Below are positions 4,112 through 49,681 of a stretch of DNA of 64,000 bases, piece by piece. The position numbers and the translations under genes were made by a program. How positions within the stretch are numbered: position 1 is the first letter of the stretch; each line of letters begins with the position of its first letter. The DNA is from Minisyncoccota bacterium (GTDB lineage: Bacteria > Patescibacteriota > Minisyncoccia > Phycocordibacterales > UBA9973), in contig JBAZSF010000001.1 in NCBI GenBank assembly GCA_041662525.1, positions 41,383 to 105,382 of the forward strand, written 5' to 3'. Below the pieces are notes generated by a model that was not told the origin of the DNA, made no database searches, and was given only the letters and a program-made list of their open reading frames with translations.

Positions 4112-4136
4112 AGTTTATGAAAAGATTATATCATTT

Positions 4137-4385
4137 CTAACCCGTAGCGAGCACCACCCAAATAGCAACAAAGGCGAGAAAGACAACTGTGCCGATGACT
4201 ACTTGATATTTAGCAACTCGTCTTGTCACAAAAAGAATAGTAGTTGCCATGACTACCCAAAATACCCAAGCGAAGACGAATTCGTTCCAATTCCAATTCC
4301 AGCCTTCAACAAATTGATTTCCCAACAATGGAATAATTAGTGCTACTGTTGCCCAGCCCATAATTTTAAAAATCGAGTTCTTCAT
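4137..4385 (-). CDS. small membrane protein, unknown function
   Basis: 82 aa with 2-3 hydrophobic helices; follows the previous ORF on the same strand. Confidence 0.35.
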   Translation of the reverse strand: MKNSIFKIMGWATVALIIPLLGNQFVEGWNWNWNEFVFAWVFWVVMATTILFVTRRVAKYQVVIGTVVFLAFVAIWVVLATG

Positions 4386-4487
4386 ATATTTATTTTATCA
4401 TAGTAAGGGTTCTTTGAGTGATTTTAGTATAGCAAATTGAAGCGCCTCAGTCGCCCTAGTGCCGTAAACTGTAGAAGTTTGAACTTG

Positions 4488-4496
4488 TGATAGAAT
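4488..4496 (+). promoter_or_regulatory. extended -10 (TGaTAGAAT) ending 6 nt before the msrB ATG; likely leaderless transcript
   Basis: tgatagaat at 4488-4496, ATG at 4503, no Shine-Dalgarno sequence. Confidence 0.4.
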
Positions 4497-4502
4497 TTAA
4501 AT

Positions 4503-4860
4503 ATGAAAGAACTAACTGAGGAAGAAAAAAGAGTAATAATAAACAAAGGCACAGAAGTACCGTTTACAGGTGAGTATGTTAACAATAAAGCAACCGGCGT
4601 TTATGTTTGTCGACAATGCGGGAATCCACTTTATAATTCCAAGGATAAATTTGAATCCAATTGTGGCTGGCCTTCTTTTGATGATGAGATACCTGGAGCA
4701 GTGCATAAGACTTTGGATGCCGATGGGAGTACGCACAGAGATAACTTGCACAAACTGCGGAGCACATTTGGGGCATTTGTTTATTGGTGAGCATTTAACT
4801 CCTAAAAACAAAAGATACTGCGTGAACTCTATTTCAATGAAATTTATACCCGGAAAATAG
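4503..4860 (+). pseudogene. msrB: peptide-methionine (R)-S-oxide reductase MsrB, disrupted by a +1 frameshift near 4727
   Basis: Frame 1 encodes the MsrB N-terminal half (PFTGEY...CRQCGNPLY...[10 protein letters not shown]...KTLDADGS). Frame 2 encodes the C-terminal half ([33 protein letters not shown]). Joining them needs removal of one nucleotide around agtAcgc. Confidence 0.6.
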
Positions 4861-4882
4861 TTTAATAAATTATTTTAAAAAT

Positions 4883-5371
4883 ATGATTAAAAAAATAGTA
4901 TTGGCGGGAGGATGTTTCTGGGGTCTTCAAGACTTGATAAGAAAACAAGCAGGCGTGGTGAAAACGCAGGTGGGCTATACAGGAGGAAAAGTTAAAAATG
5001 CAACATATGAAAATCATGAGGGGCATGCCGAGGCGGTAGAGATAGAATATGATACCGAAAAAACTTCTTATAAAAAAATGCTAGATTTTTTCTTTCAAAT
5101 ACACAATCCTACGACTATAAATCAGCAAGGGAATGATCGAGGAACTTCGTATCGTTCAGCAATATTTTACGGCAATGAGGAAGAAAAAAAGAAAGCAGAA
5201 AATTTCATAGATATCGTAAATAAATCAAAACGTTGGAAAGACCCTGTGGTTACAACACTGGAACCACTCTCTGATTTTTATCAAGCAGAAGAATACCATC
5301 AAGATTATCTACAGAAAAACCCAGGTGGCTATACTTGTCATGCTATTTATTTTGATAGTTATTTAAAATAG
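4883..5371 (+). CDS. msrA: peptide-methionine (S)-S-oxide reductase MsrA
   Basis: GCFWG active-site motif at the N-terminus; typical MsrA length. Confidence 0.9.
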
Positions 5372-5407
5372 ATAAAACAATTAATAAAATAACAAAGAAA
5401 AAATATA

Positions 5408-5509
5408 TGAAAGACGAAGGCTATAAAAATACTTTCCCTCACATTCGTTCGGGACCTTCGTCACTAATATTCGGGCCGAAGGCCCTGAGGAGCCTTAAGG
5501 CGACGAAGG
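5408..5509. other. GC-rich structured region 3' of tRNA-Gln (minus strand): nested hairpins including GGGCC-UUCG-GCCC and three copies of the complementary 8-mers GACGAAGG/CCTTCGTC
   Basis: gacgaagg at 5411, ccttcgtc at ~5447, gacgaagg at ~5502, gggccgaaggccc at ~5470. On the minus strand this is followed by a T-run, so it probably acts as the tRNA terminator. Confidence 0.4.
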
Positions 5510-5581
5510 GCTGGGAGACTAGGAATCGAACCTAGATTAAAGGCTTCAAAGGCCTCTGTCCTACCGTTAGACGATCTCCCA
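5510..5581 (-). tRNA. tRNA-Gln (anticodon UUG)
   Basis: Reverse complement folds as a cloverleaf: acceptor TGGGAGA/TCTCCCA, D-arm GTC-TAACGGTAG-GAC, anticodon stem GAGGC/GCCTT with loop CTTTGAA (UUG), T-arm CTAGG-TTCGATT-CCTAG, discriminator G. Confidence 0.8.
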
Positions 5582-5597
5582 ATGTTTACGTTTTGAT

Positions 5598-5840
5598 CTA
5601 ATTAAACAGTTTTTTAAGAAATTTTCTTCCAGAAGCTGATTTTAAATACTTTTCACGCTTTCTGGCTTCTTTTAGACTATCATATTTTTCATTATATATC
5701 ATTGTCCAAGGACAATGACGTTTTGTGTAAAAACTCTTTCCAGAATTATGTTCTGCTAACCTACGATTTAAATTGTTTGTTATACCTACATAACTTTTCA
5801 AGGAAACTGTACTTTTTAATATATAAAGAAAATAATTCAT
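5598..5840 (-). CDS. GIY-YIG nuclease family protein (UPF0213/YhbQ-like)
   Basis: YILKS...YVGITNNLNRRLAEHN is the GIY-YIG motif; 80 aa. Confidence 0.8.
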   Translation of the reverse strand: MNYFLYILKSTVSLKSYVGITNNLNRRLAEHNSGKSFYTKRHCPWTMIYNEKYDSLKEARKREKYLKSASGRKFLKKLFN

Positions 5841-5854
5841 TACATAGAGTATTA

Positions 5855-5896
5855 GACGACCTGCCTCGCCTTGATGCGAGTCAAGGCGGGTCTCCC
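5855..5896. repeat. GC-rich hairpin (CGCCTTGA-tgcgag-TCAAGGCG core), a member of the GC-rich palindrome family
   Basis: gacgacctgcctcgccttgatgcgagtcaaggcgggtctccc lies in the AT-rich promoter region between the GIY-YIG and ogt genes. Confidence 0.5.
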
Positions 5897-7513: not shown

Positions 7514-8035
7514 CTACACCTCCTTTCTATTTTTTCCGACAATTCTATCCAGCACGCCAACTGTCGTTGAATCATCAAGAACGTTCTTTAGAACAACAGC
7601 ATTAGCTCCTATTTTTACGTTAGAGCCAATTTTGATATTACCAAGGATTTTTGCTCCGGCTCCAACTTCAACATTATTGCCAAGAGTAGGATGCCTTTTA
7701 CCCTTTTCCTTCCCAGTTCCACCAAGGGTCGCTCCTTGATAAAGAAGACAATTATCTCCTATCTCGGCGGTTTCTCCTATGACCACACCCATTCCGTGGT
7801 CAATTACAAGCCCAACGCCTATCTTTGCCGCAGGATGAATTTCTATCCCAGTAAAAAATCTAACTAACTGGGACAGAATTCTTGCGCTTAGCTTCCAGTT
7901 TTTCATCCAAAGCCAGTGTGCAACGCGATGCCCAAGTATCGCATGTAATCCTGGGTAACATAGCAATACTTCTAAAACCGTCCGAGCTGCTGGATCCCTC
8001 TCAAAAATTGCACTTATATCCTTTGGTAATCTCAT
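7514..8035 (-). CDS. cysE: serine O-acetyltransferase
   Basis: N-terminal SAT region ([22 protein letters not shown]) plus hexapeptide repeats with IHPAAKIG...[18 protein letters not shown]. Confidence 0.85.
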
Positions 8036-9523: not shown

Positions 9524-9540
9524 AATTACGAAACTTGTTG

Positions 9541-9825
9541 CAGGCGTACTTTTTAGAAAGCCTTGCGCAGGCGGACGCGCCGAGCAGTTCGCTGGCGAAG
9601 CTTCGCCAGATAGATTGCTTTATAAAAAGTTATGCCAAGAAAGAGTTTCGTAATTAGATCTGAATTAAGAAACATAAACTTTTCTTCGGTACAGATTTTT
9701 TGAAGCTTAAAAAATCCTGCACGCCCCGCCAAAGGCGAGGCTCCGCCCAAAGGCGGGCCGAGGGAAGTTCTCGGCTCGACAGCCTACGAAACCCCGCAAA
9801 AAGTTATGTTTCTTAATTCAGGATG
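9541..9825. repeat. composite GC-rich structured element: 18-bp perfect palindrome (9592-9609), 18-bp terminal inverted repeats CTGAATTAAGAAACATAA (9660-9677 / 9804-9821) enclosing GC-rich hairpins, and direct repeat AAAAAGTTATG (9624 / 9798)
   Basis: ctggcgaagcttcgccag is a perfect palindrome. gatctgaattaagaaacataa and its reverse complement (ttatgtttcttaattcagga) flank a core containing ccgcccaaaggcgg and ccgagggaagttctcgg hairpins. The local GC content is far above the genome background. Confidence 0.55.
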
Positions 9826-13979: not shown

Positions 13980-16967
13980 ATGATTTCCCGAATATATGTA
14001 GCGTCCAAAGGAAAAGCTGACTTTATTAACTCTTACTTAATTTCCCATAAGTTGGGGAATGACAAAATCCTGAAAATCGCGGAAGCTCTAACAAACCCTA
14101 TCCTTGAAGAATTTTCTATAAATAAATTCCCAGCGACAGCTAAATTTTCTTATGCCATAGAAATAGGTTTCAAGCCAGGAGTCACAGACAATGTCGGGCA
14201 TACTGTGGAGGAAACTATTATGGACTTATTGCATATTGCTCCGGACGTTGGACGTCGGGGATTCGGACGTCCAACGTCCGGAGCTGATTTAGCAGTTTAT
14301 ACTTCTAAAATTTATTTAGTTTCTAATTCTAAAACAGAAGAGGTTGAGAAGATAGCTCTCTCGCTACATAATCCTCTGATTGAGCGTTCACATATCATAA
14401 GTATTTCTGATTTAAAAAAGAAAGGTTTACCATTAGAAGTTCCTAAAGTCATTTTGAAAAAGGCTACCCCAGTCATAAATGTCTCTCTTGATGTATCTGA
14501 CGAAGAACTTATAAAAATCGGTAGTGGAGGAATAATGGATGATAAGACAAAAGAAAGACGCGGTCCTTTGGCTCTTGATTTAGCGTCAATGAAAGTAATC
14601 CAAGAACATTTCAAAAAATTGAAAAGGGAGCCGACTGATATTGAGCTAGAATCTTTGGCACAAACTTGGTCTGAGCATTGCAAACATACTATTTTTGCAA
14701 ATCCTATCGATGACATCAAAGACGGTTTATATAAAACATATATAAAAGGCGCAACGAATTTAATTCGCAAACAAAAAGGAGCAAAAGATTTTTGTGTTTC
14801 TGTATTTAGTGATAATTCTGGAGGAATTATTTTTGATAAGGATTATTTAATTACTCATAAAGTAGAAACACACAATAGTCCTTCAGCTCTAGATCCATTT
14901 GGTGGAGCCATCACTGGCATCGTAGGTGTAAACCGGGACACAATAGGCTTCGGACTAGGCGCTAAACCGGTAGCTAATCTTTATGGTTTTTGCTTCGGTA
15001 ACCCTGAAGATAAAAGATCACTCTTTCGTGATAAAAATCTAACTCAAAAAATGCTTTCACCGAAAAGAATTATGGAGGGTGTAGTAAAAGGAATAAATGT
15101 TGGTGGAAATTGTTCTGGTATACCGACTCTTTCTGGTTTCGTTCGTTATGATGATAGATATAGAGGAAAGCCTTTGGTTTTTGCTGGTACGGTAGGGTTG
15201 ATTCCAAGAAATTTACCAGCCTCACCGAGTCTAGGCGGGCCCACCTTGGAAGGAAAAAAAAGGCTTTCACATCTCAAAAAAGCGCAAAACGGAGATTATG
15301 TCGTAGTTGTCGGAGGGAGAGTAGGTCTAGATGGTATTCATGGGGCGACTTTTTCTTCAGTGGTGATGGATTCAAGTTCTCCGGCGACTGCAGTGCAAAT
15401 CGGTGACCCAATAACTCAGAAAAAATTAAGTGATGCATTAATCAAAGAAGCGCGAGATCTGAATTTATATAACAGCATCACAGACAATGGCGCTGGAGGA
15501 ATTTCTTGTTCAGTTGCTGAAATGGCAAAAGAATGTGGCGGTGCAAAAGTTTCTTTAGAAAAAGTTCCATTAAAATACCCCGATCTTCGTCCATGGGAAA
15601 TTTGGATTTCAGAATCACAGGAACGTATGACTTTATCTGTGCCAAAGAAAAAATGGAATTTATTTAAAGAATTAATGGAAAAGAGAGGAGTAGAAGCTAC
15701 TATCATTGGAGAATTCACAAATTCTGGTAAATGTATTGTGGAATATTCTAATAAAAAAATCATGGATATTCCTATGGATTTTTTGCATGATGGTTTGCCG
15801 GAACAGCATTTATATACAAAACCCATTCAATTCACCTCTCCCCAAACCCCTCTCCATTATTTAGATAATGGAGAGGGGAAAGCAAGGGGTGAGGATTATA
15901 CGAAAGCCTTAGAAAAATTACTCGGTAGTAAAAATATCAGTGGATTTTCTTTTATTTCAGAGCAGTATGATCACGAAGTTCAAGGATCTTCTGTTTTAAA
16001 ACCACTCTCTGGACGAGGTCGTATCAATACCGATGCACAAGTTTTTCAGCCTGTTTTAAATTCAAACAAAGGAGTCATTCTATCTTCGAGCACTTATCCT
16101 TCATATGGAGACATTAGTACTTATCATATGGCCGCCTGCGCTATCGATAATGCTATTAGAAATACTCTTTGCGCTGGTGGAACACTTACACACTTAGCAA
16201 TTTTGGACAATTTCTGCTGGTGTTCATCCTATGATCAAACACGTTTAGCACAGCTCGTAGATTCAGTAAAAGCTTGTTACGACTATGCCGTCGGTTATGG
16301 AACACCCTTTATTTCTGGTAAGGATAGTATGTTTAATGACTTTAGGGGTTACGATAGTGACGGTAACCATGTGACTGTTTCTATCCCACCGACACTTCTT
16401 ATTTCAACGATTAGTGTTATGCCCGATTTAAATAAAACTGTTTCTCCAGAATTTAAAAATATAGGTGATATAATTTATTTATTAGGAGAAACAAATGATG
16501 AACTCGGAGGAGGAGAATATCTTAAAATGCTTGGAGCTATTGGCAACATTGTGCCCAAAGTAAATTTAAAAAAGAATATCAAAACTTATCGCGCCCTAGA
16601 AAAAGCAATTCAAAAAGAATTAATAGTTTCGGCAATGTCTGTTAATTCTGGCGGGCTGGCTATAGCACTCGCCAAAGCATGCGTAGGAGGAATGGTTGGA
16701 TGTAATGTTTCCCTTGACCCCATAGGCAAGATCTATGGGGTAGATGTAAAACTTTTCTCTGAAAGTCAGGGAAGGATTTTAGTTTCTGTAAATCCTAAAA
16801 ATATTTTAGGATTTGAAAAATTAATGAAGAATATTTTTTATGCCAAGTTGGGCAAAGTGGCCAAAGATAGTAAATTTGTTATTACGGATGGAAATAAAAA
16901 GATAATTGAAACAAGTGTAAAAAAATTGCACGATGCTTATCATAAATTTTCTAACTCACAAAAATGA
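13980..16967 (+). CDS. purL: phosphoribosylformylglycinamidine synthase subunit PurL with ~180-aa N-terminal (PurS-like) extension
   Basis: REPTDIELESLAQTWSEHCKHTIF and THNSPSALDPFGGAITGIVGVNRD motifs. The FGAM-synthetase core starts at about residue 215. No glutaminase domain (a separate purQ follows). Confidence 0.9.
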   Translation: MISRIYVASKGKADFINSYLISHKLGNDKILKIAEALTNPILEEFSINKFPATAKFSYAIEIGFKPGVTDNVGHTVEETIMDLLHIAPDVGRRGFGRPTSGADLAVYTSKIYLVSNSKTEEVEKIALSLHNPLIERSHIISISDLKKKGLPLEVPKVILKKATPVINVSLDVSDEELIKIGSGGIMDDKTKERRGPLALDLASMKVIQEHFKKLKREPTDIELESLAQTWSEHCKHTIFANPIDDIKDGLYKTYIKGATNLIRKQKGAKDFCVSVFSDNSGGIIFDKDYLITHKVETHNSPSALDPFGGAITGIVGVNRDTIGFGLGAKPVANLYGFCFGNPEDKRSLFRDKNLTQKMLSPKRIMEGVVKGINVGGNCSGIPTLSGFVRYDDRYRGKPLVFAGTVGLIPRNLPASPSLGGPTLEGKKRLSHLKKAQNGDYVVVVGGRVGLDGIHGATFSSVVMDSSSPATAVQIGDPITQKKLSDALIKEARDLNLYNSITDNGAGGISCSVAEMAKECGGAKVSLEKVPLKYPDLRPWEIWISESQERMTLSVPKKKWNLFKELMEKRGVEATIIGEFTNSGKCIVEYSNKKIMDIPMDFLHDGLPEQHLYTKPIQFTSPQTPLHYLDNGEGKARGEDYTKALEKLLGSKNISGFSFISEQYDHEVQGSSVLKPLSGRGRINTDAQVFQPVLNSNKGVILSSSTYPSYGDISTYHMAACAIDNAIRNTLCAGGTLTHLAILDNFCWCSSYDQTRLAQLVDSVKACYDYAVGYGTPFISGKDSMFNDFRGYDSDGNHVTVSIPPTLLISTISVMPDLNKTVSPEFKNIGDIIYLLGETNDELGGGEYLKMLGAIGNIVPKVNLKKNIKTYRALEKAIQKELIVSAMSVNSGGLAIALAKACVGGMVGCNVSLDPIGKIYGVDVKLFSESQGRILVSVNPKNILGFEKLMKNIFYAKLGKVAKDSKFVITDGNKKIIETSVKKLHDAYHKFSNSQK
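14238..14284. repeat. 47-nt perfect GC-rich palindrome inserted in frame in purL
   Basis: gctccggacgttggacgtc-ggggattcg-gacgtccaacgtccggagc has a 19-bp perfect stem and encodes APDVGRRGFGRPTSGA within the N-terminal domain. Confidence 0.7.
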
Positions 16968-42905: not shown

Positions 42906-44036
42906 CTATTCCTCATGACTCAAAGCTATATCCACTAGTTCTCGAGCTATTTTTTCAGCAGCGCCTTCTTTGTTGAAAGCTTTTGCATTTTGTGTCATTT
43001 TTTCATAACTTACCTTGTCTTCTATTATTCTTTCAATTTCTAAACTTAAAATATTAGCTGTCATATTATCTTCTTCAATAACACTACAAGCTCCAGCTCG
43101 TGCATAACTAAAAGCATTTTTTCTTGAGTGATCAGCATTTGAATTCTTAAAAGGAACTAAGATTGACGGCACACCCCAAGAAGCTATTTCAAATAAAGTT
43201 GATCCAGCACGAGAAACAATAATAGTAGCAACACCTGCCGTCATTTTCATTTGTAAAGAATTTAAAAATGGAAAAGGTAAATATCTTGCCTTGTTCTTAT
43301 TCTCTGCTAATATAACTTCCGCTTCTCCAGAAACTGTTTTAAATTTTTGAACTCCAGTTTGGTGAACAATTTGATAATTTTTTATTAATATTGGTAATGC
43401 ATCCAAAACAACATTATTTATAAGTTCTGCTCCTTGAGAGCCACCAAGTATAACAATAATAGGTATTTCTTCTTCTAATTTTAAATATTTTAATGCTTCT
43501 TTTTGTGGTGATTTATGCTCTATTTCAGTCCTTATGGGTTGTCCTGTCCAAGCGACAATTTCCTTTGGAAAAAAAACAGCAGCCTCAGCAAAAGACACAG
43601 CAACTTTTTTAGCAAAATGTCCTGCCCAAAGATTCACTCGTCCAGGAGCAGAATCTGATTCATGAATTAAAACAGGGATACGTAAAATTCTAGCTGCGAA
43701 AATCGTCGGAAAAGAGGCATATCCTCCTTTGCCAAAAACAACATCTGGATAAATTGAAAATAATTTAAAAATTGCATTAATAATACCAAAAAAAATTTTG
43801 AAAATATCAATAAAATTTTGAAATGAAAAATAAGTACGCATTTTCCCAGATACTATTTTTTCATACAAAAGTTCATTTTCAACAAGTATTTTTTTATCAT
43901 AAGGACTATCAGAAAAATAATAAAGTTTCGCTCCTACGATATGTTCCTGGTCTATTATTTTATTAACTTTTTGGGCAATAGCAATAAGTGGATAAAAATG
44001 TCCACCCGTCCCACCACCCGTAAAAACTATTTTCAT
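42906..44036 (-). CDS. murG: UDP-N-acetylglucosamine--N-acetylmuramyl-(pentapeptide) pyrophosphoryl-undecaprenol N-acetylglucosamine transferase
   Basis: MKIVFTGGGTGGHFYP N-terminus. Confidence 0.9.
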   Translation of the reverse strand: MKIVFTGGGTGGHFYPLIAIAQKVNKIIDQEHIVGAKLYYFSDSPYDKKILVENELLYEKIVSGKMRTYFSFQNFIDIFKIFFGIINAIFKLFSIYPDVVFGKGGYASFPTIFAARILRIPVLIHESDSAPGRVNLWAGHFAKKVAVSFAEAAVFFPKEIVAWTGQPIRTEIEHKSPQKEALKYLKLEEEIPIIVILGGSQGAELINNVVLDALPILIKNYQIVHQTGVQKFKTVSGEAEVILAENKNKARYLPFPFLNSLQMKMTAGVATIIVSRAGSTLFEIASWGVPSILVPFKNSNADHSRKNAFSYARAGACSVIEEDNMTANILSLEIERIIEDKVSYEKMTQNAKAFNKEGAAEKIARELVDIALSHEE

Positions 44037-44155
44037 CCCGTTAGAAGCAGATCGCGATCAACTCGCGTATCTGATGTTTTAAGTTATTAATTTTTTCTAT
44101 GTTTAATTTCATGTTTTGTTTATTTTTAAATTGCGATCGCGGCTTCTAACGGGAT
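44035..44155. repeat. 121-nt inverted-repeat element (termini ATCCCGTTAGAAGC ... GCTTCTAACGGGAT) exactly filling the ftsW-stop/murG-start junction
   Basis: Imperfect ~23-bp terminal inverted repeat around a ~75-nt AT-rich interior. Outer bases include the murG start codon and abut the ftsW stop. Confidence 0.7.
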
Positions 44156-45258
44156 TAATTATTTTTACGCTGAAATCTAGATATATTAAGCACAATACCC
44201 ATTGCCATCATGAAAACCATAAGTGAAGTACCTCCTTGACTCATGAAAACTAACGGCACTCCTGTCAATGGAAAAACACCAATTACAGAAGCGATATGCA
44301 TAAATGATTGTGCTGTAATTAGTATAACAATTCCATAAACTAAAAGTCCACTAAAAGCATCTGGAGAGCGATTAGCGATACGAAAACCACGTAAAATAAA
44401 AAACAAATAAAGAAATATTGTAATTATTGACCCAACAAAGCCCAATTCTTCACCCAAGACAGCAAAAATAGAGTCACCTTGTGGCTCAGGAAGATAACTA
44501 AATTTTTGAATACTTTGACCAAATCCACGTCCAAAAATACCACCTGATCCCAAAGCAATAAGCGATTGTTGAATTTGATAAGAAGACCCTTGCGCATCTC
44601 CCGATGGATTAATAAAAGTTTTTACTCTTTCTTGTAAGTATGGCTTAAAAAAAACTAGAGTTCCGAGTAGTAGAACTACTCCAAAGATTGTACCAAAAAT
44701 ATACTTTAAGGGAACACTAGAAATAAAAAGCATCGAGATTCCAGTAATAGAAATAAGAATAAAACTTTTTGTATCTGGTTGTTTTAATAAAACAAAAGCA
44801 ATAACTGTAATCATTATTAAAAATGGTAAAATTCCAAATCTAAAATCCTGCACTTTATTTTTTACCCACGACAACCAAGCTGCAAAATAAATAATAAAGC
44901 CAAATTTTAAAAATTCTACTGGTTGAAATTGAAAGGTTCCGATTTGTATCCACCTAGACGCTCCTCCATGACTCCATCCAAGAGTTGGAATAAAAACCGC
45001 GGCAGTTAATAATATGGACCCTAAAAAAAATAAAAAGGAAAATTTACGCCAAAATTTATAATTTATTTTAGAACAAAAATACATACCTAAAAATCCAAGA
45101 CCAAGACCGAGGACCAATTGACTAAAAAGCACTGAATAAAATATTTTTTCATTTTTTGCCAAAATTCCCAAAGAGGCCGAAATAAACATAGCCACTCCAA
45201 GGGCTAATAAAATAAATATAATTATAAGAAAAAATTTATCTACTTTTTTTTCTTTCAT
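44155..45258 (-). CDS. ftsW: SEDS-family peptidoglycan glycosyltransferase FtsW/RodA
   Basis: 10-TM SEDS topology with conserved SQGGTS motif. Confidence 0.85.
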   Translation of the reverse strand: MKEKKVDKFFLIIIFILLALGVAMFISASLGILAKNEKIFYSVLFSQLVLGLGLGFLGMYFCSKINYKFWRKFSFLFFLGSILLTAAVFIPTLGWSHGGASRWIQIGTFQFQPVEFLKFGFIIYFAAWLSWVKNKVQDFRFGILPFLIMITVIAFVLLKQPDTKSFILISITGISMLFISSVPLKYIFGTIFGVVLLLGTLVFFKPYLQERVKTFINPSGDAQGSSYQIQQSLIALGSGGIFGRGFGQSIQKFSYLPEPQGDSIFAVLGEELGFVGSIITIFLYLFFILRGFRIANRSPDAFSGLLVYGIVILITAQSFMHIASVIGVFPLTGVPLVFMSQGGTSLMVFMMAMGIVLNISRFQRKNN

Positions 45259-45379
45259 CCCGTTAGAGGTAGGAAATGCTCTGCATTTCCGTAGTTATAT
45301 TACTTATAATTAAAATTTTCAACATTAATTGTTTTTCTATATTATTTAAAATAATAAACTATACAACCTCTAACGGGAT
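45257..45379. repeat. 123-nt inverted-repeat element (termini ATCCCGTTAGAGGT ... ACCTCTAACGGGAT, 14-bp perfect) filling the mraY-stop/ftsW-start junction; second copy of the 44035 family
   Basis: Shares the 11-nt terminus ATCCCGTTAGA with the 44035 element. Contains an inner 8-bp hairpin ggaaatgc-tct-gcatttcc. The right arm ends at the AT of the ftsW start codon. Confidence 0.7.
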
Positions 45380-45382
45380 TCA

Positions 45383-46438
45383 TTACCTACTCACTATTGC
45401 TAAAATCACACCTACAATAGCAAATACAATTGAAAGAATCCAAAAACGCATTGTCACTTTATAAGATGGCCAACCAAGTGCTTCAAAATGATGATGAATA
45501 GGTGCTAATTTAAACAATCGTTTTCCTCCCCTTATTTTTTTTGAACATATCTGTAAAACGACAGAACCAGATGAAATCACAAGAGGTAGGGCAATAATGG
45601 GAAGAATTAAAACTGAATCAGTTAAAAATGCAAATGTCGCCAAAGTAATAGTTAGACCCATAATACCAGTCTCTCCCATATAAAATCTAGCAGGCGGAAT
45701 ATTAAACCAAAGAAATGCAAGAATCGCTCCAGTGATAACTCCTGAAAAAGCAGCGAGATCTATTTGATTATTGGCAAAAGCTATCGCCGAATAAGCGGCA
45801 AAAATGGACGCAAGTACTCCCCCTGAAAGTCCGTCTATACCATCGATTACTCCGCCAGAAAAAGTCGCTACTGCCACTATTATAAAAAATGGAATTATAA
45901 AAATACCTAAGTAAATATTTCCTGCAAACGGGATATGAATCGATGTCATACCTAGTTTATAAAAAAACCAAAACCCTATAAAAAGAGAAATAAGAGTCAC
46001 AAGAAAAACTTTCCATTTGCGCCATGATTTATCATCCCGAGCAAATTTTCCCGCACCATAAATTTGAATAAGATCATCCCAAAGCCCTAGCAATGAGCCT
46101 AAAAGGAGTGTAAAAAAAGGTATTAGAGTTTGGTTACGACTCAAGAAAGTCATTTTTTCTGTACTAATTGATGGAAAAAAATTTGATGCTAGAAAAAAAA
46201 GGATTGTAGTAAAAAGAACAGAAACCCAGATTATTATTCCACCAACACGGGGTGTTTTTAATTCTTCTTTTTCATTATGTACTTTATGAAAATCAGATGC
46301 AGACGTACCAATATTCCTAGAATATTTTTTCCACATTTTATATTTATAAAAAAAATGAGTAGCAAATGGAGTAAGCAAAAGACCTAAGAAAAAAGCAAAT
46401 GTTGTCGGCACAAAAATTTTAACTAAATTTAAAAGCAT
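45383..46438 (-). CDS. mraY: phospho-N-acetylmuramoyl-pentapeptide transferase
   Basis: LLGLWDDL and polytopic MraY topology. Confidence 0.9.
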   Translation of the reverse strand: MLLNLVKIFVPTTFAFFLGLLLTPFATHFFYKYKMWKKYSRNIGTSASDFHKVHNEKEELKTPRVGGIIIWVSVLFTTILFFLASNFFPSISTEKMTFLSRNQTLIPFFTLLLGSLLGLWDDLIQIYGAGKFARDDKSWRKWKVFLVTLISLFIGFWFFYKLGMTSIHIPFAGNIYLGIFIIPFFIIVAVATFSGGVIDGIDGLSGGVLASIFAAYSAIAFANNQIDLAAFSGVITGAILAFLWFNIPPARFYMGETGIMGLTITLATFAFLTDSVLILPIIALPLVISSGSVVLQICSKKIRGGKRLFKLAPIHHHFEALGWPSYKVTMRFWILSIVFAIVGVILAIVSR

Positions 46439-46473
46439 TGATTTATTATAGCAATAAATGCTATCGTTCTCAA

Positions 46474-47950: not shown

Positions 47951-49681
47951 TTAATAAACTTCTTGTTGGTAACACTTCTCGCAATAAACAATCTCTGGCC
48001 TTTCTGGGGCATAACTGGTCTCAAATTCTACTTCACATTTTTTGGTGCCGTGCGTATGATTTTCTTTATTGCACATACACTCTCTGCGCCAGAGTTTGCT
48101 GGGTCCTCTATTTTTAAAACGTTTAAGATGACGGCACTCAGGACAGTTACGTGGTATTGGTATTTGCATTCTTTTATAAAAAGCTAACTCATCTACAATA
48201 ACTCGATAATTTTTATTGCATTCCATGCATGCAAAAACCTCCTTATTTACATCAAAATCAGAAGATAATTCTAAAATGGAATCTGGGAAAGTTTTCCAAT
48301 CAATAGTTTCCTTGCCATATGTCCCACGCGGAGTATCTTCCCATTTGAAACCCTGCGCTAATGCTTCTTCTTTTGTTAGTGGAAATTCGTCCATAACCGA
48401 AGACTCATTATAGCCAAACGGAGATAATTCTTTTGGAAAAAAATCTCCGTAAATCCCCTCTTGTTTCATTTTTTCTACAATTTCTGCTTGGAGTTTTTCA
48501 TATTCTTCTTTAGAATACTGTTTATTTAAAATACAATAAGAACCTTTTATTAAACCAACACATCCAAAACAATTATTAGAATTCGGGCAATTTAAACAAT
48601 ATTCCATAAATTGTGAGCCCCAGCAATATTGAGAGCAAGTAACATTTGATGCTTCAAGCCCGGTATTTAGAGTATTATAAATCAATTCTGCCGTGCGCCC
48701 TGCAGTATTGCAATCCATACAATCTTTTGCCCCGCGCCAAACATGCATGGAATAAGCATTGTCTTCTGCGTCATAAGAATGAAAACACTGACGATTATTT
48801 TTGACGTTCGTCATATAATTTCCCGTAGAATTTACGGCATTAAAAATTTCAGCAAATTTTCTAGGTTTGTCTTTTATAAAATTTTGAAATTCTTTTTTAA
48901 AATTTTTCATACCCGAATGTGTGTCTAATTTAAAAGATTTTAATTTATTTTCATATTCTTCTTTGGTGTATGGTTCATCAAAAATACAATACTTTTGTCC
49001 CCGTAAATTTATACAACCCAAACAATTTGAGCAATTTCGGCAATCAAGAAGAAAGGAACTGTCAAGACAGCTATGGCATCCTTTGGAAAATCGTAAATTA
49101 TTACAGTCATAACAATCATCAACTTCGTACGATAGTTCTACTTTATTCGTAAAAGAACAATCGACTAGATCTTTTGAAAGCTGAATCCAATAACAATTGA
49201 TGCAATTCTCATTATTTGAGCTTTCTATGATCACATAACAGTTTTTATTATCAGCCGTATAATTTAAGTAATAACAATTTACATTTCTTAAGCCAGTCAA
49301 AGCTGGTTTTGGAACTTTTTTCCAAAGTTCACTAAACTGCTTAAAGAAAGATTCATTAGAATTATAATTTTGAGCATATTTATTAGCATTTAGGTCATCA
49401 CCATACCAACAATTAGAACACCAACTAGGGTAAGTTTTATTTGGACTAAAAATTGAAATTGTATCTTTTTTACAATTATCACAAATACGCTTGTAAAAAC
49501 ATCTTTCATTTTTAAAACAAAGTCGAAGTTGCATTCGACATTCTGGACAATTTTTAGGTGGCAATACTCCAATCTTTTCATAAAATCCAAAATCATCCGG
49601 CTCAATCGTGAAGTTTTTTTGACAACTTTGGCAAGTAGTAGGCACTGAGTCTTGCGAATGTGTTTTAGTTTGTACTTCCAT
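47951..49681 (-). CDS. cysteine-rich multi-zinc-ribbon-like protein of unknown function (576 aa); paralog of 16964..18748
   Basis: Same architecture as 16964..18748 and an identical C-terminal EIVYCEKCYQQEVY; 17-nt overlap with scpB. Confidence 0.75.
   Translation of the reverse strand: MEVQTKTHSQDSVPTTCQSCQKNFTIEPDDFGFYEKIGVLPPKNCPECRMQLRLCFKNERCFYKRICDNCKKDTISIFSPNKTYPSWCSNCWYGDDLNANKYAQNYNSNESFFKQFSELWKKVPKPALTGLRNVNCYYLNYTADNKNCYVIIESSNNENCINCYWIQLSKDLVDCSFTNKVELSYEVDDCYDCNNLRFSKGCHSCLDSSFLLDCRNCSNCLGCINLRGQKYCIFDEPYTKEEYENKLKSFKLDTHSGMKNFKKEFQNFIKDKPRKFAEIFNAVNSTGNYMTNVKNNRQCFHSYDAEDNAYSMHVWRGAKDCMDCNTAGRTAELIYNTLNTGLEASNVTCSQYCWGSQFMEYCLNCPNSNNCFGCVGLIKGSYCILNKQYSKEEYEKLQAEIVEKMKQEGIYGDFFPKELSPFGYNESSVMDEFPLTKEEALAQGFKWEDTPRGTYGKETIDWKTFPDSILELSSDFDVNKEVFACMECNKNYRVIVDELAFYKRMQIPIPRNCPECRHLKRFKNRGPSKLWRRECMCNKENHTHGTKKCEVEFETSYAPERPEIVYCEKCYQQEVY

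Follow-up and report, generated by a model that had tools for sequence, protein, structure and literature searches.

A probable miniature inverted-repeat transposable element family that inserts at start codons and rebuilds them, with copies at ftsW and murG of a Minisyncoccota bacterium

The DNA analysed here is a stretch of 64,000 nt from a Minisyncoccota bacterium (GenBank assembly GCA_041662525.1, contig JBAZSF010000001.1, positions 41,383 to 105,382 of the forward strand), hereafter the window, which is AT-rich (G+C ~33%) and carries on its minus strand a mraY-ftsW-murG operon with a short inverted-repeat element at each of its two gene junctions. The first gene of the operon is mraY (45383-46438; Pfam Glycos_transf_4, 1.4e-20), followed by ftsW (44155-45258; FTSW_RODA_SPOVE, 2e-95; 100% identity to a Paceibacterota protein) and murG (42906-44036; Glyco_transf_28 N- and C-terminal domains), and the ATG codons of both ftsW and murG are completed by the element that precedes them.

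Read in mRNA sense, the ftsW-start element (45257-45379, minus strand, 123 nt) has the ends 5'-ATCCCGTTAGAGGT...ACCTCTAACGGGAT-3'. Its left terminal inverted repeat (TIR; ATCCCGTTAGAGGT, 45366-45379) lies 3 nt past the mraY stop codon, while the final two bases of its right TIR (ACCTCTAACGGGAT, 45257-45270) are the A and T of the ftsW ATG (45256-45258), and the two arms form a 14-nt inverted repeat of 100% identity. One nucleotide upstream of the 3' arm stands a hairpin, P2 (GGAAATGC-AGA-GCATTTCC, 45272-45290; ggaaatgc-tct-gcatttcc in plus-strand reading), which is a polar module found family-wide. On the far side of the element a relic of the old ftsW start, ATGA (45380-45383), is retained, its A overlapping the mraY stop codon TAA (45383-45385) and its GA forming the upstream copy of a duplication whose downstream copy occupies 45255-45256. 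The murG-start element (44035-44155, minus strand, 121 nt; 5'-ATCCCGTTAGAAGCCGCGATCGC...GATCGCGATCTGCTTCTAACGGGAT-3' in mRNA sense, also given as 5'-ATCCCGTTAGAAGC...GCTTCTAACGGGAT-3') is fitted as closely: the first A of its 5' arm (44142-44155) is the last base of the ftsW stop codon TAA (44155-44157), a 1-nt overlap, and the final AT of its 3' arm (44035-44048) lies within the murG ATG (44034-44036). Here the inverted repeat spans 17 nt at 94% (44032-44048 and 44142-44158). Both elements are bounded by ATCCCGTTAGA / TCTAACGGGAT. The 11-mer ATCCCGTTAGA has four exact matches in the 64-kb window (44035, 44145 on the minus strand, 45257 and 45369 on the minus strand) and none elsewhere in it; with at most one mismatch allowed there are five matches against 0.70 expected, a number reached by 0 of 100 shuffles.

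When the minus-strand RNA is folded, the termini of both elements pair as a closing 14-bp helix, P1 (ftsW copy: -42 kcal/mol, z = -6.7; murG copy: -34 kcal/mol, z = -4.6), the last A-U of which is made of the first two bases of the ftsW or murG ATG. The coordinates, terminal repeats and inner hairpin thereby agree with an earlier prediction made from the same sequence (the original prediction), as does its claim that the outer stem reaches the AT of each downstream start codon. That prediction left two readings side by side, namely a MITE-like (miniature inverted-repeat transposable element) mobile family that supplies start codons, and a conserved cis-regulatory RNA helix that evolved in place in the dcw (division and cell wall) mRNA and serves translational control or processing. 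A stable fold, the inclusion of the A-U of both start codons and the compensatory differences between the two window copies at positions 12-14 would all suit a regulatory helix. Against it, no Rfam family matches the elements: searched at gathering score, the whole window yielded nothing but a tRNA at another place, and the element region, searched with E up to 10, gave chance-level miRNA matches only.

We compared the same junctions in 12 loci from relatives with FtsW 80-91% identical (L121-L123, L245-L248 and L250-L254). The element is absent from both junctions in all 12, the mraY/ftsW gap measuring 1-45 nt and the ftsW/murG gap -4 to 30 nt. These empty sites have the start regions ...ATGAAAGAAAAAAA (ftsW) and ...ATGAAAATAGTTTTT (murG), whereas the filled sites of the window read ...ATGA[element]GAAAGAAAAAAAA (ftsW) and ...[element]GAAAATAGTTTTT (murG), so that at ftsW ATGA[element]GAAAG faces ATGAAAG, and the net gain per insertion is only 121-123 nt. 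Both copies recur in another sample of the species (L249), where the ftsW copy aligns at 100% identity, and a further relative (L124) carries an element with the variant end ATCCCG-AACGA/TACGA at the same ftsW start. In a Nomurabacteria genome (L049), the MurG of which has just 72% identity to that of the window, the murG-start copy reaches 88% identity; no murG-start element is present in a genome with a MurG of 89% identity, and a 92% identical copy of the murG element stands before an unrelated gene in another genome (L116). The copies thus resemble one another more closely than their hosts do and have a scattered distribution on the tree, and particular start codons have been struck more than once; both window insertions look recent and confined to this species.

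The conserved dcw helix fails on this comparison. Its inverted repeat is missing at the orthologous junctions of the 12 relative loci; as detailed below, the same termini stand before 146 gene families, the terminal 11 nt are conserved as sequence and do not covary, and no strand-specific excess of G-U pairs is seen. We hold this explanation to be very improbable. Equally, the suggestion that the element sits in the place of murD proved wrong: mraY-ftsW-murG without murD is the norm in all these relatives, and since those that lack the element also have mraY adjoining ftsW, the element is no stand-in for murD. The unchanged gene order bears in the same way on integron attC-like sites with mraY, ftsW and murG as cassettes, an idea to which we give next to no credence. 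The core sites of attC have RYYYAAC first and GTTRRRY after it; the GTTAGA and TCTAAC of the present arms resemble GTTRRRY and RYYYAAC, and the size fits the 57-141 nt range, but their order is the opposite one (5' arm GTTAGA, 3' arm TCTAAC), the conserved ATCCCG falls outside the core, and each insertion added only 121-123 nt. Because the relatives keep the same gene order without any sites, nothing has moved as a cassette.

Several other features of these neighbourhoods were observed. Upstream of the cluster the window has a 576-aa open reading frame (ORF; 47951-49681, minus strand) without a Pfam match, and relatives have a 582-587-aa ORF, also without a Pfam match, in the equivalent neighbourhood. 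In L124 a 583-aa ORF without a Pfam match (4128-5879) lies between ftsW and murG, which indicates that even this small cluster is not fixed in the clade. In L245 (3620-6028) murG and gltX are each called as two ORFs, for which frameshifts, pseudogenes or assembly errors are possible causes, and in L246 a 177-nt murG/gltX gap (4736-4912) holds a different, G+C-rich palindromic repeat (CAACCCTC...GGGGGTTGC) unrelated to the element.

The termini recur widely. A scan of genomes, one per species, with the pattern ATCCCGTTAGA-N75-105-TCTAACGGGAT and a scan of metagenomes in which only ATGAATCCCG...CGGGATGAA was fixed returned at least 120 stretches each, so that the further copies that the mobile reading called for exist at more than 240 other loci, a lower bound, with several copies per genome in many metagenome-assembled genomes. 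The hosts within Patescibacteria are Paceibacteria groups, Saccharibacteria, Kaiserbacteria (53% G+C), Levyibacteria and Kerfeldbacteria; outside it they are Sedimentisphaerales/Planctomycetes, Omnitrophota, a WOR-3 bin and two phages. From the listed genome stretches and the window 138 copies were extracted, 129 or 135 of which underlie the family counts given here. Elements of the family are 39-133 nt long, and the gene-oriented consensus of the extracted copies is 5'-ATG[A/G] | ATCCCGTTAGA RRY ... RYY TCTAACGGGAT | G[A/G]A-3'. A profile of the family scores both window copies higher in gene sense than in antisense (nhmmer; ftsW copy 45.2 versus 26.4 bits, murG copy 57.1 versus 18.1 bits) and finds no further copies in the window. 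Where the inner TIR was left free, in the metagenome scan, 82 of 121 copies read ATCCCGTTAGA, i.e. keep TTAGA, while about 10 read ATCCCGTACGA; this conservation of the terminus as sequence suggests recognition by a protein. The adjoining positions 12-14 are variable yet complementary (A-T, G-C, C-G, T-A) in more than 95%. A likeness of the TIR to the T-arm/acceptor 3' half of tRNA or to the initiator-tRNA anticodon stem is presumably a coincidence.

What lies next to the elements is constant in position and diverse in kind. In 120 of 135 copies an ORF of 60 or more codons (median 245) begins at the terminal ATG, and the exceptions are mostly locus-end cuts or tandem copies. The 108 downstream proteins match 146 Pfam families, none of them more than four times, and include diverse housekeeping products (topoisomerase I, PheT and other aminoacyl-tRNA synthetases, SSB, adenylate kinase, L9, BipA, glycosyltransferases), so that the element is tied to no gene family. 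Within the element itself no ORF is conserved: the mini-ORFs that begin at the old ATG are short (median 19 codons) and scattered in their stops and frames. A role for these mini-ORFs as a coupling device was considered and rejected, since only 35 of 118 stop near the new ATG and 80 stop in the interior.

The flanks of the copies record how they were inserted. Of 129 copies, 76 have ATGA and 23 have ATGG on the left, the old ATG thus being kept in 99, while on the right 88 have GAA and 25 have GGA. The 2 nt on either side are identical in 104 of 129 copies by direct check, and when each copy is scored by its longest duplication, 105 of 135 have one of 2 nt (GA 80, GG 23). Insertion would accordingly occur one or two bases past the start codon, at ATG-R-A, with 2 nt (GA or GG) duplicated, and because the element ends in ...GGGAT an ATG would be rebuilt directly before the interrupted gene. 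The 2-nt duplication may equally be read as a 4-nt TGRA duplication with a TIR beginning TCCCG..., two readings that sequence alone cannot separate. As every insertion remakes ATGRA at both ends of the element, arrays can grow; tandem copies split by an exactly duplicated GA (...CGGGAT GA ATCCCG...) were seen at L062 5471-5712, L106 6502-6722 and L014 ~7672-7800.

We consider it highly probable that the two window elements belong to a non-coding, non-autonomous, MITE-like TIR family with the terminus ATCCCGTTAGA(RRY) that inserts at ATG-R-A and rebuilds the start signals of its target, together with the course of translation proposed for the window below. Of the two readings in the original prediction, the MITE-like family is thus strongly supported, by the empty sites, the 2-nt duplication, the hundreds of copies and the closer likeness of the copies than of the host genes. 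Two subfamilies would have landed on the ftsW and murG starts of a tightly packed operon, and the elements span the junctions from stop to start because they were inserted at start codons in such an operon. In kind the family is a known one, with all features of a MITE except an autonomous partner with the same TIRs; new in comparison with known MITEs are the exact placement on initiation codons, the regeneration of the ATG, the fixed orientation, the host-matched signals and the occurrence in several phyla and in phages. Full-text searches of the literature within reach of a text search found neither the TIR sequence nor a description of the family, neither a MITE survey of 183,232 genomes nor a 2024 review mentions Patescibacteria or start-codon targeting, and the family has apparently not been described before.

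The copies are strongly polar. They fall into two main subfamilies, of which the window holds one copy each, the hairpin type at ftsW and the extended-TIR type at murG. In the hairpin type the arrangement ACGG-stem-loop-stem-CC-TR directly precedes the 3' arm, and the stems differ in sequence with pairing kept (GGAAATC/GATTTCC, GGTCGTC/GACGACC, GGTTGCGGC/GCCGCAACC), double changes occurring in 10 of the 22 predicted hairpin pairs (25 copies). A hairpin of at least 7 bp is found at that position in 34 of 135 copies versus 4.4% of shuffles, and the hairpin is next to the ATG in ~44 copies but at the opposite end in ~5. In the extended-TIR type the 5' end has ...GCCGCGATCGC and the 3' end has GCGAYCTGYY, the latter signature being ATG-proximal in 52 copies and distal in one. 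For both types taken together the orientation relative to the gene is ~96:6 (binomial p ~6e-22). Some copies have in addition an internal third unit, CGGGA(T), ~30-40 nt from the 5' end, in sense orientation in 46 of 135 copies versus 7 in antisense.

The gene-proximal end also differs between hosts. An SD-like (Shine-Dalgarno-like) pentamer lies 4-14 nt before the element ATG in 15 copies, for example as ...AAAGGAGGTCTAACGGGATG in Planctomycetota and Omnitrophota, where the SD sequence lies within the 3' arm and the 5' arm has ...GACCTCC. Among neighbouring genes an SD core occurs in 40% in the hosts of SD-bearing copies versus 11% in other hosts (Fisher p = 1.1e-8). The gene-proximal end of the element thus matches the initiation mode of its host, and it is this gene-side end, as hairpin or extended arm and with an SD in SD-using hosts, that would import the translation start signals.

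Mini versions of the element, 39-96 nt long with an internal AAGGAGG, were observed on contigs of a viral collection (L266 4732-4778 and 9057-9118; L276 3734-3829; L260 10173-10217). Two of these contigs, L266 and L276, are confirmed phages with portal, capsid and SU10-type adaptor genes; in them each mini version coincides exactly with a structural gene's start codon, the adaptor gene being struck in both, and has the layout [5' TIR][internal 3' TIR copy][AAGGAGG][3' TIR]ATG. The copy at L276 3734-3829 includes a nested, complete 30-nt back-to-back palindrome of variant ends, ACCCTGTTAGAGGT-TT-ACCTCTAACAGGGT, which indicates that a tiny foldback may be the minimal unit of the family and that nested or composite copies can occur. 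The copies on phages offer a way for the element to pass from host to host.

Several of these features bear on the kind of enzyme that moves the element. The anatomy of TIR and duplication points to a DDE-type enzyme that would act in trans. A REP/REPIN-like (repetitive extragenic palindromic) or IS200/IS605-like element moved by an HUH enzyme (Y1, RAYT-type), with ATGR as the cleavage or target tetranucleotide at the right end, is the other candidate, and would explain the several short palindromic TIR-like units of some copies (L276, L266), the internal third unit, the structure-conserved but sequence-variable hairpin at one end only and the strict orientation, which is expected for strand-specific transposition; that no TIR-flanked transposase gene was seen in ~1.77 Mb would suit it as well. 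The flanking dinucleotide, however, co-varies, 23 of 25 copies with GG on the right having ATGG on the left, and it differs between 92% identical elements (GA in the window, GG in L116), which fits a real duplication better; perfect TIRs of 11-14 nt are moreover typical of DDE elements, and no RAYT or Y1 gene was seen, although no search was aimed at them. We regard movement by an HUH enzyme as quite unlikely.

How ftsW and murG continue to be expressed depends on the initiation habits of this genome. A promoter-like site (46445-46473, minus strand; TTGAGA-17-TATAAT with TG) ends 6 nt before the mraY ATG and is the best of the region in a consensus scan; it is likely, from its sequence and position, the single promoter for mraY-ftsW-murG and the source of a leaderless transcript. 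No outward promoter on the gene strand passed the same scan in either window element, and a TTGAAA-17-TATAAC spotted by eye within an element as a possible promoter was rejected on failing the -10 criteria. An SD site is present in only 8 of the 70 window genes, so that the lack of one before ftsW and murG, as originally predicted, stands but is not special to them. A -10-like hexamer ends 5-9 nt before the ATG in 21 of 70 window genes, with a peak at 6 nt, which fits widespread leaderless transcripts and suggests that leaderless mRNAs may be common in this genome. Across the family the old ATG is preceded by TGnTAtAAT at 6-9 nt in 45 of 118 copies (a crude pattern), and insertions behind TGnTAtAAT-ATG would give a formerly leaderless mRNA a folded leader of 120 nt. 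Of the 70 window genes, 38 begin with ATGRA; the window has 434 such sites, 38 at gene starts, 27 at other intergenic positions and 369 intragenic.

For the window, the operon transcript would still come from the promoter before mraY, and in the mRNA the paired TIRs would form the 14-bp helix that takes in the A-U of each AUG. Because P1 includes these bases some translational effect is likely, as a consequence of the insertion and not as conserved dcw control. The junctions of relatives, 2-9 nt long or overlapping, imply translational coupling between the genes. A bacterial ribosome paused at a stop codon covers roughly 12-15 nt downstream; as the stop codon abuts the 5' arm, a terminating ribosome should melt most of the helix (mraY stop) or all of it (ftsW stop). 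The melted helix would free the 3' arm and the AUG, and initiation at ftsW and murG would stay coupled to translation of the preceding gene. Translation of ftsW and murG by such melting is, given these positions, the most likely course. The loss of the old ATG and spacer from the murG copy and the position of the ftsW stop codon at the helix would be compatible with selection for coupling, and are no proof of it.

The same helix could instead have become a regulatory switch, the inserted element now sequestering the start codon (and SD, where present) in P1, with relief through upstream translation, a decoy or RNase III. This would agree with the A-U of the AUG inside P1, with the Planctomycetota/Omnitrophota copies, whose 3' arm has GGAGG 8 nt before the ATG and whose 5' arm has the anti-SD-like CCUCC, and with the internal CGGGA(T) unit, which as a decoy is able to form 5 or more base pairs with the 5' arm in 26 of 135 copies and in none of the reversed control. 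Correia elements, too, are cut by RNase III at their paired TIRs (PMC10969869). Neither window copy, however, has an internal CGGGA(T) decoy; in the family the decoy has no significant link to an absent upstream ORF (28% versus 39%, p = 0.20), and mismatches in P1 give no significant RNA-strand signal. A switch is in our view unlikely.

The paired ATG codons might also suggest an RNA-level intervening sequence, the element being removed from the mRNA or bypassed from the old AUG to the new one. The direct ATGRA repeats would serve as matching take-off and landing codons, with the old ATG still behind its own SD or -10 box in many copies. There is no ribozyme-like conserved core, though, the interior being variable and AT-rich and without an Rfam match; the window murG copy lacks the old ATG and yet precedes an essential gene, and in SD hosts the new ATG has its own SD, which would be pointless unless it initiates. 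Such an intervening sequence is scarcely credible.

More tentatively, the element may have evolved into a translationally "transparent" transposon, which aims at initiation codons, brings initiation signals suited to its host and by its paired ends places the original ribosome entry point beside the rebuilt AUG. This entry point would be the upstream stop codon, the old SD or, in a leaderless mRNA, the AUG at the 5' terminus, and ribosomes would be handed across the 120-nt insertion in what would be a bacterial analogue of ribosome shunting or of structure-mediated reinitiation. This is a possibility that we rate as rather doubtful. If true, it would explain why insertions are tolerated before the essential ftsW, murG, topA, pheT and ssb in tiny, SD-poor, leaderless-rich genomes.

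Several points weigh against insertion of a MITE-like element with the translational course preferred here. First, no autonomous partner was seen in ~1.77 Mb of element-rich DNA, where the ~235 TIR pairs all lie within 150 nt; the search for longer pairs, 200-4000 nt apart, covered 8-kb pieces around elements, so that this absence is provisional. A 1555-nt TIR "pair" in four phage contigs was rejected as a chance match, lying inside structural genes on the other strand, and lone TIRs considered as ends of other elements proved to be degenerate copies with a mutated partner. Secondly, the length of the duplication is not strictly fixed (of 135 copies, 10 have 1 nt, 6 have 3 nt and 14 have none) and is looser than for many DDE transposases. 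The window murG copy has neither duplication nor old ATG; both the old ATG and the 9-nt spacer of relatives are missing, and a secondary 14-nt deletion must be assumed. Thirdly, the enrichment at start codons may in part be survivorship: random insertion at ATGRA with loss of intragenic events predicts 58% at starts. At least 89% are observed (p ~1e-14), and the excess beyond survivorship needs targeting or selection against other intergenic sites. Finally, P1 mismatches are G-U in 42 and A-C in 30 cases (p = 0.10), which gives no significant sign of selection on the RNA strand, and the translational part of the proposal is read from the sequence.

Other repeats of the window are of different kinds. 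Two inverted-repeat elements (9524-9655 and 9660-9821) lie in a 315-nt gap between genes for a DAO-type oxidoreductase and a DUF2914 protein, with arms of 31 nt (74% complementary) and 24 nt (92%) and with interiors, GCGCAGGCGGACGCGCCGAGC... and CGCCCCGCCAAAGGCGAGGCTCCGCCC..., that are G+C-rich in a genome of 33% G+C; their appearance is that of another family, of small mobile elements or of structured RNAs. Inside an FGAM-synthase-like gene (13980-16967) lies an inverted repeat with perfect 19-nt arms around a loop of 9 nt (14238-14284; GCTCCGGACGTTGGACGTC / GACGTCCAACGTCCGGAGC), which is G+C-rich relative to its surroundings.

Patescibacteria (the candidate phyla radiation, CPR) have small genomes, ~90% of which is coding, and little mobile DNA is usually expected in them. 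In the present case a mobile element would find room at the one position where the part that it destroys, the start codon, is replaceable. If confirmed, the family would be a clear case of transposon ends shaped by host translation initiation, its copies bearing an SD where the host uses such sites and lacking one where the host is SD-poor and rich in leaderless mRNAs. It would also provide a natural test set, hundreds of essential genes whose AUG is held in a 14-bp helix, suited to the study of initiation and coupling in bacteria largely without SD sites. The elements make 120-nt "intergenic" gaps and spurious upstream ATGs, which is relevant to gene callers and operon predictors, and copies in phage structural genes are possible markers of phage-host links.

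Nearest to the family among known systems are co-transcribed MITEs with a fold in the mRNA, such as the Correia and ERIC elements, and, as regards tolerance in essential genes of reduced genomes, the Rickettsia palindromic elements. The Correia elements of Neisseria (CREE/NEMIS) are alike in being non-coding, ~100-155 bp long, bounded by TIRs, flanked by a 2-nt duplication and present in many copies beside genes, and in being co-transcribed, with TIRs that pair in the mRNA and effects on the expression of neighbours (PMC10969869, together with general background). They differ in duplicating TA, in their 26-bp TIRs of unrelated sequence, in their variable distance upstream of genes and in acting via promoters, IHF sites and RNase III cleavage, whereas the present family lies exactly on the start codon, rebuilds the ATG, always faces the gene in the same way and occurs in several phyla as well as in phages. 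Rickettsia palindromic elements are likewise small, palindromic and mobile, and are tolerated in essential genes of reduced, gene-dense genomes (PMC10969869); unlike the present elements, which sit at the initiation codon with scattered lengths and frames that are not in-frame, they lie in-frame inside ORFs and are translated as extra peptide segments.

The REP/REPIN-RAYT system shares two short inverted conserved sequences around a variable spacer, a ~100-nt hairpin and the lack of an internal transposase, and some of the present copies are also built of several palindromic units. REPINs are extragenic and mostly 3' of genes, make no target duplication, carry GT[AG]G as their head and are linked to a RAYT gene; the present family, in contrast, has a 2-nt duplication and lies exactly on a start codon in 120 of 135 copies. 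ERIC/IRU and other enterobacterial MITEs resemble it as transcribed intergenic sequences of ~127 bp with inverted repeats that alter mRNA structure and stability in operons (PMC10969869), and differ in having no start-codon specificity, no ATG regeneration, an unrelated sequence and a range of one bacterial family only. In programmed bypass (T4 gene 60; mitochondrial byps), the comparison is with the matching ATG...ATG that 99 of 129 present copies retain and of which the murG copy has lost the first.

Closest to the proposed mode of continued ftsW and murG expression are MS2-type coupling and the split ribosome-binding site of T4 genes 25 and 38, in which a helix at the downstream start is opened or bridged and initiation depends on structure and on the upstream ribosome. 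Those systems are fixed and gene-specific, whereas here the helix would arise by pairing between the two ends of a mobile element and recur at unrelated genes in their hundreds.

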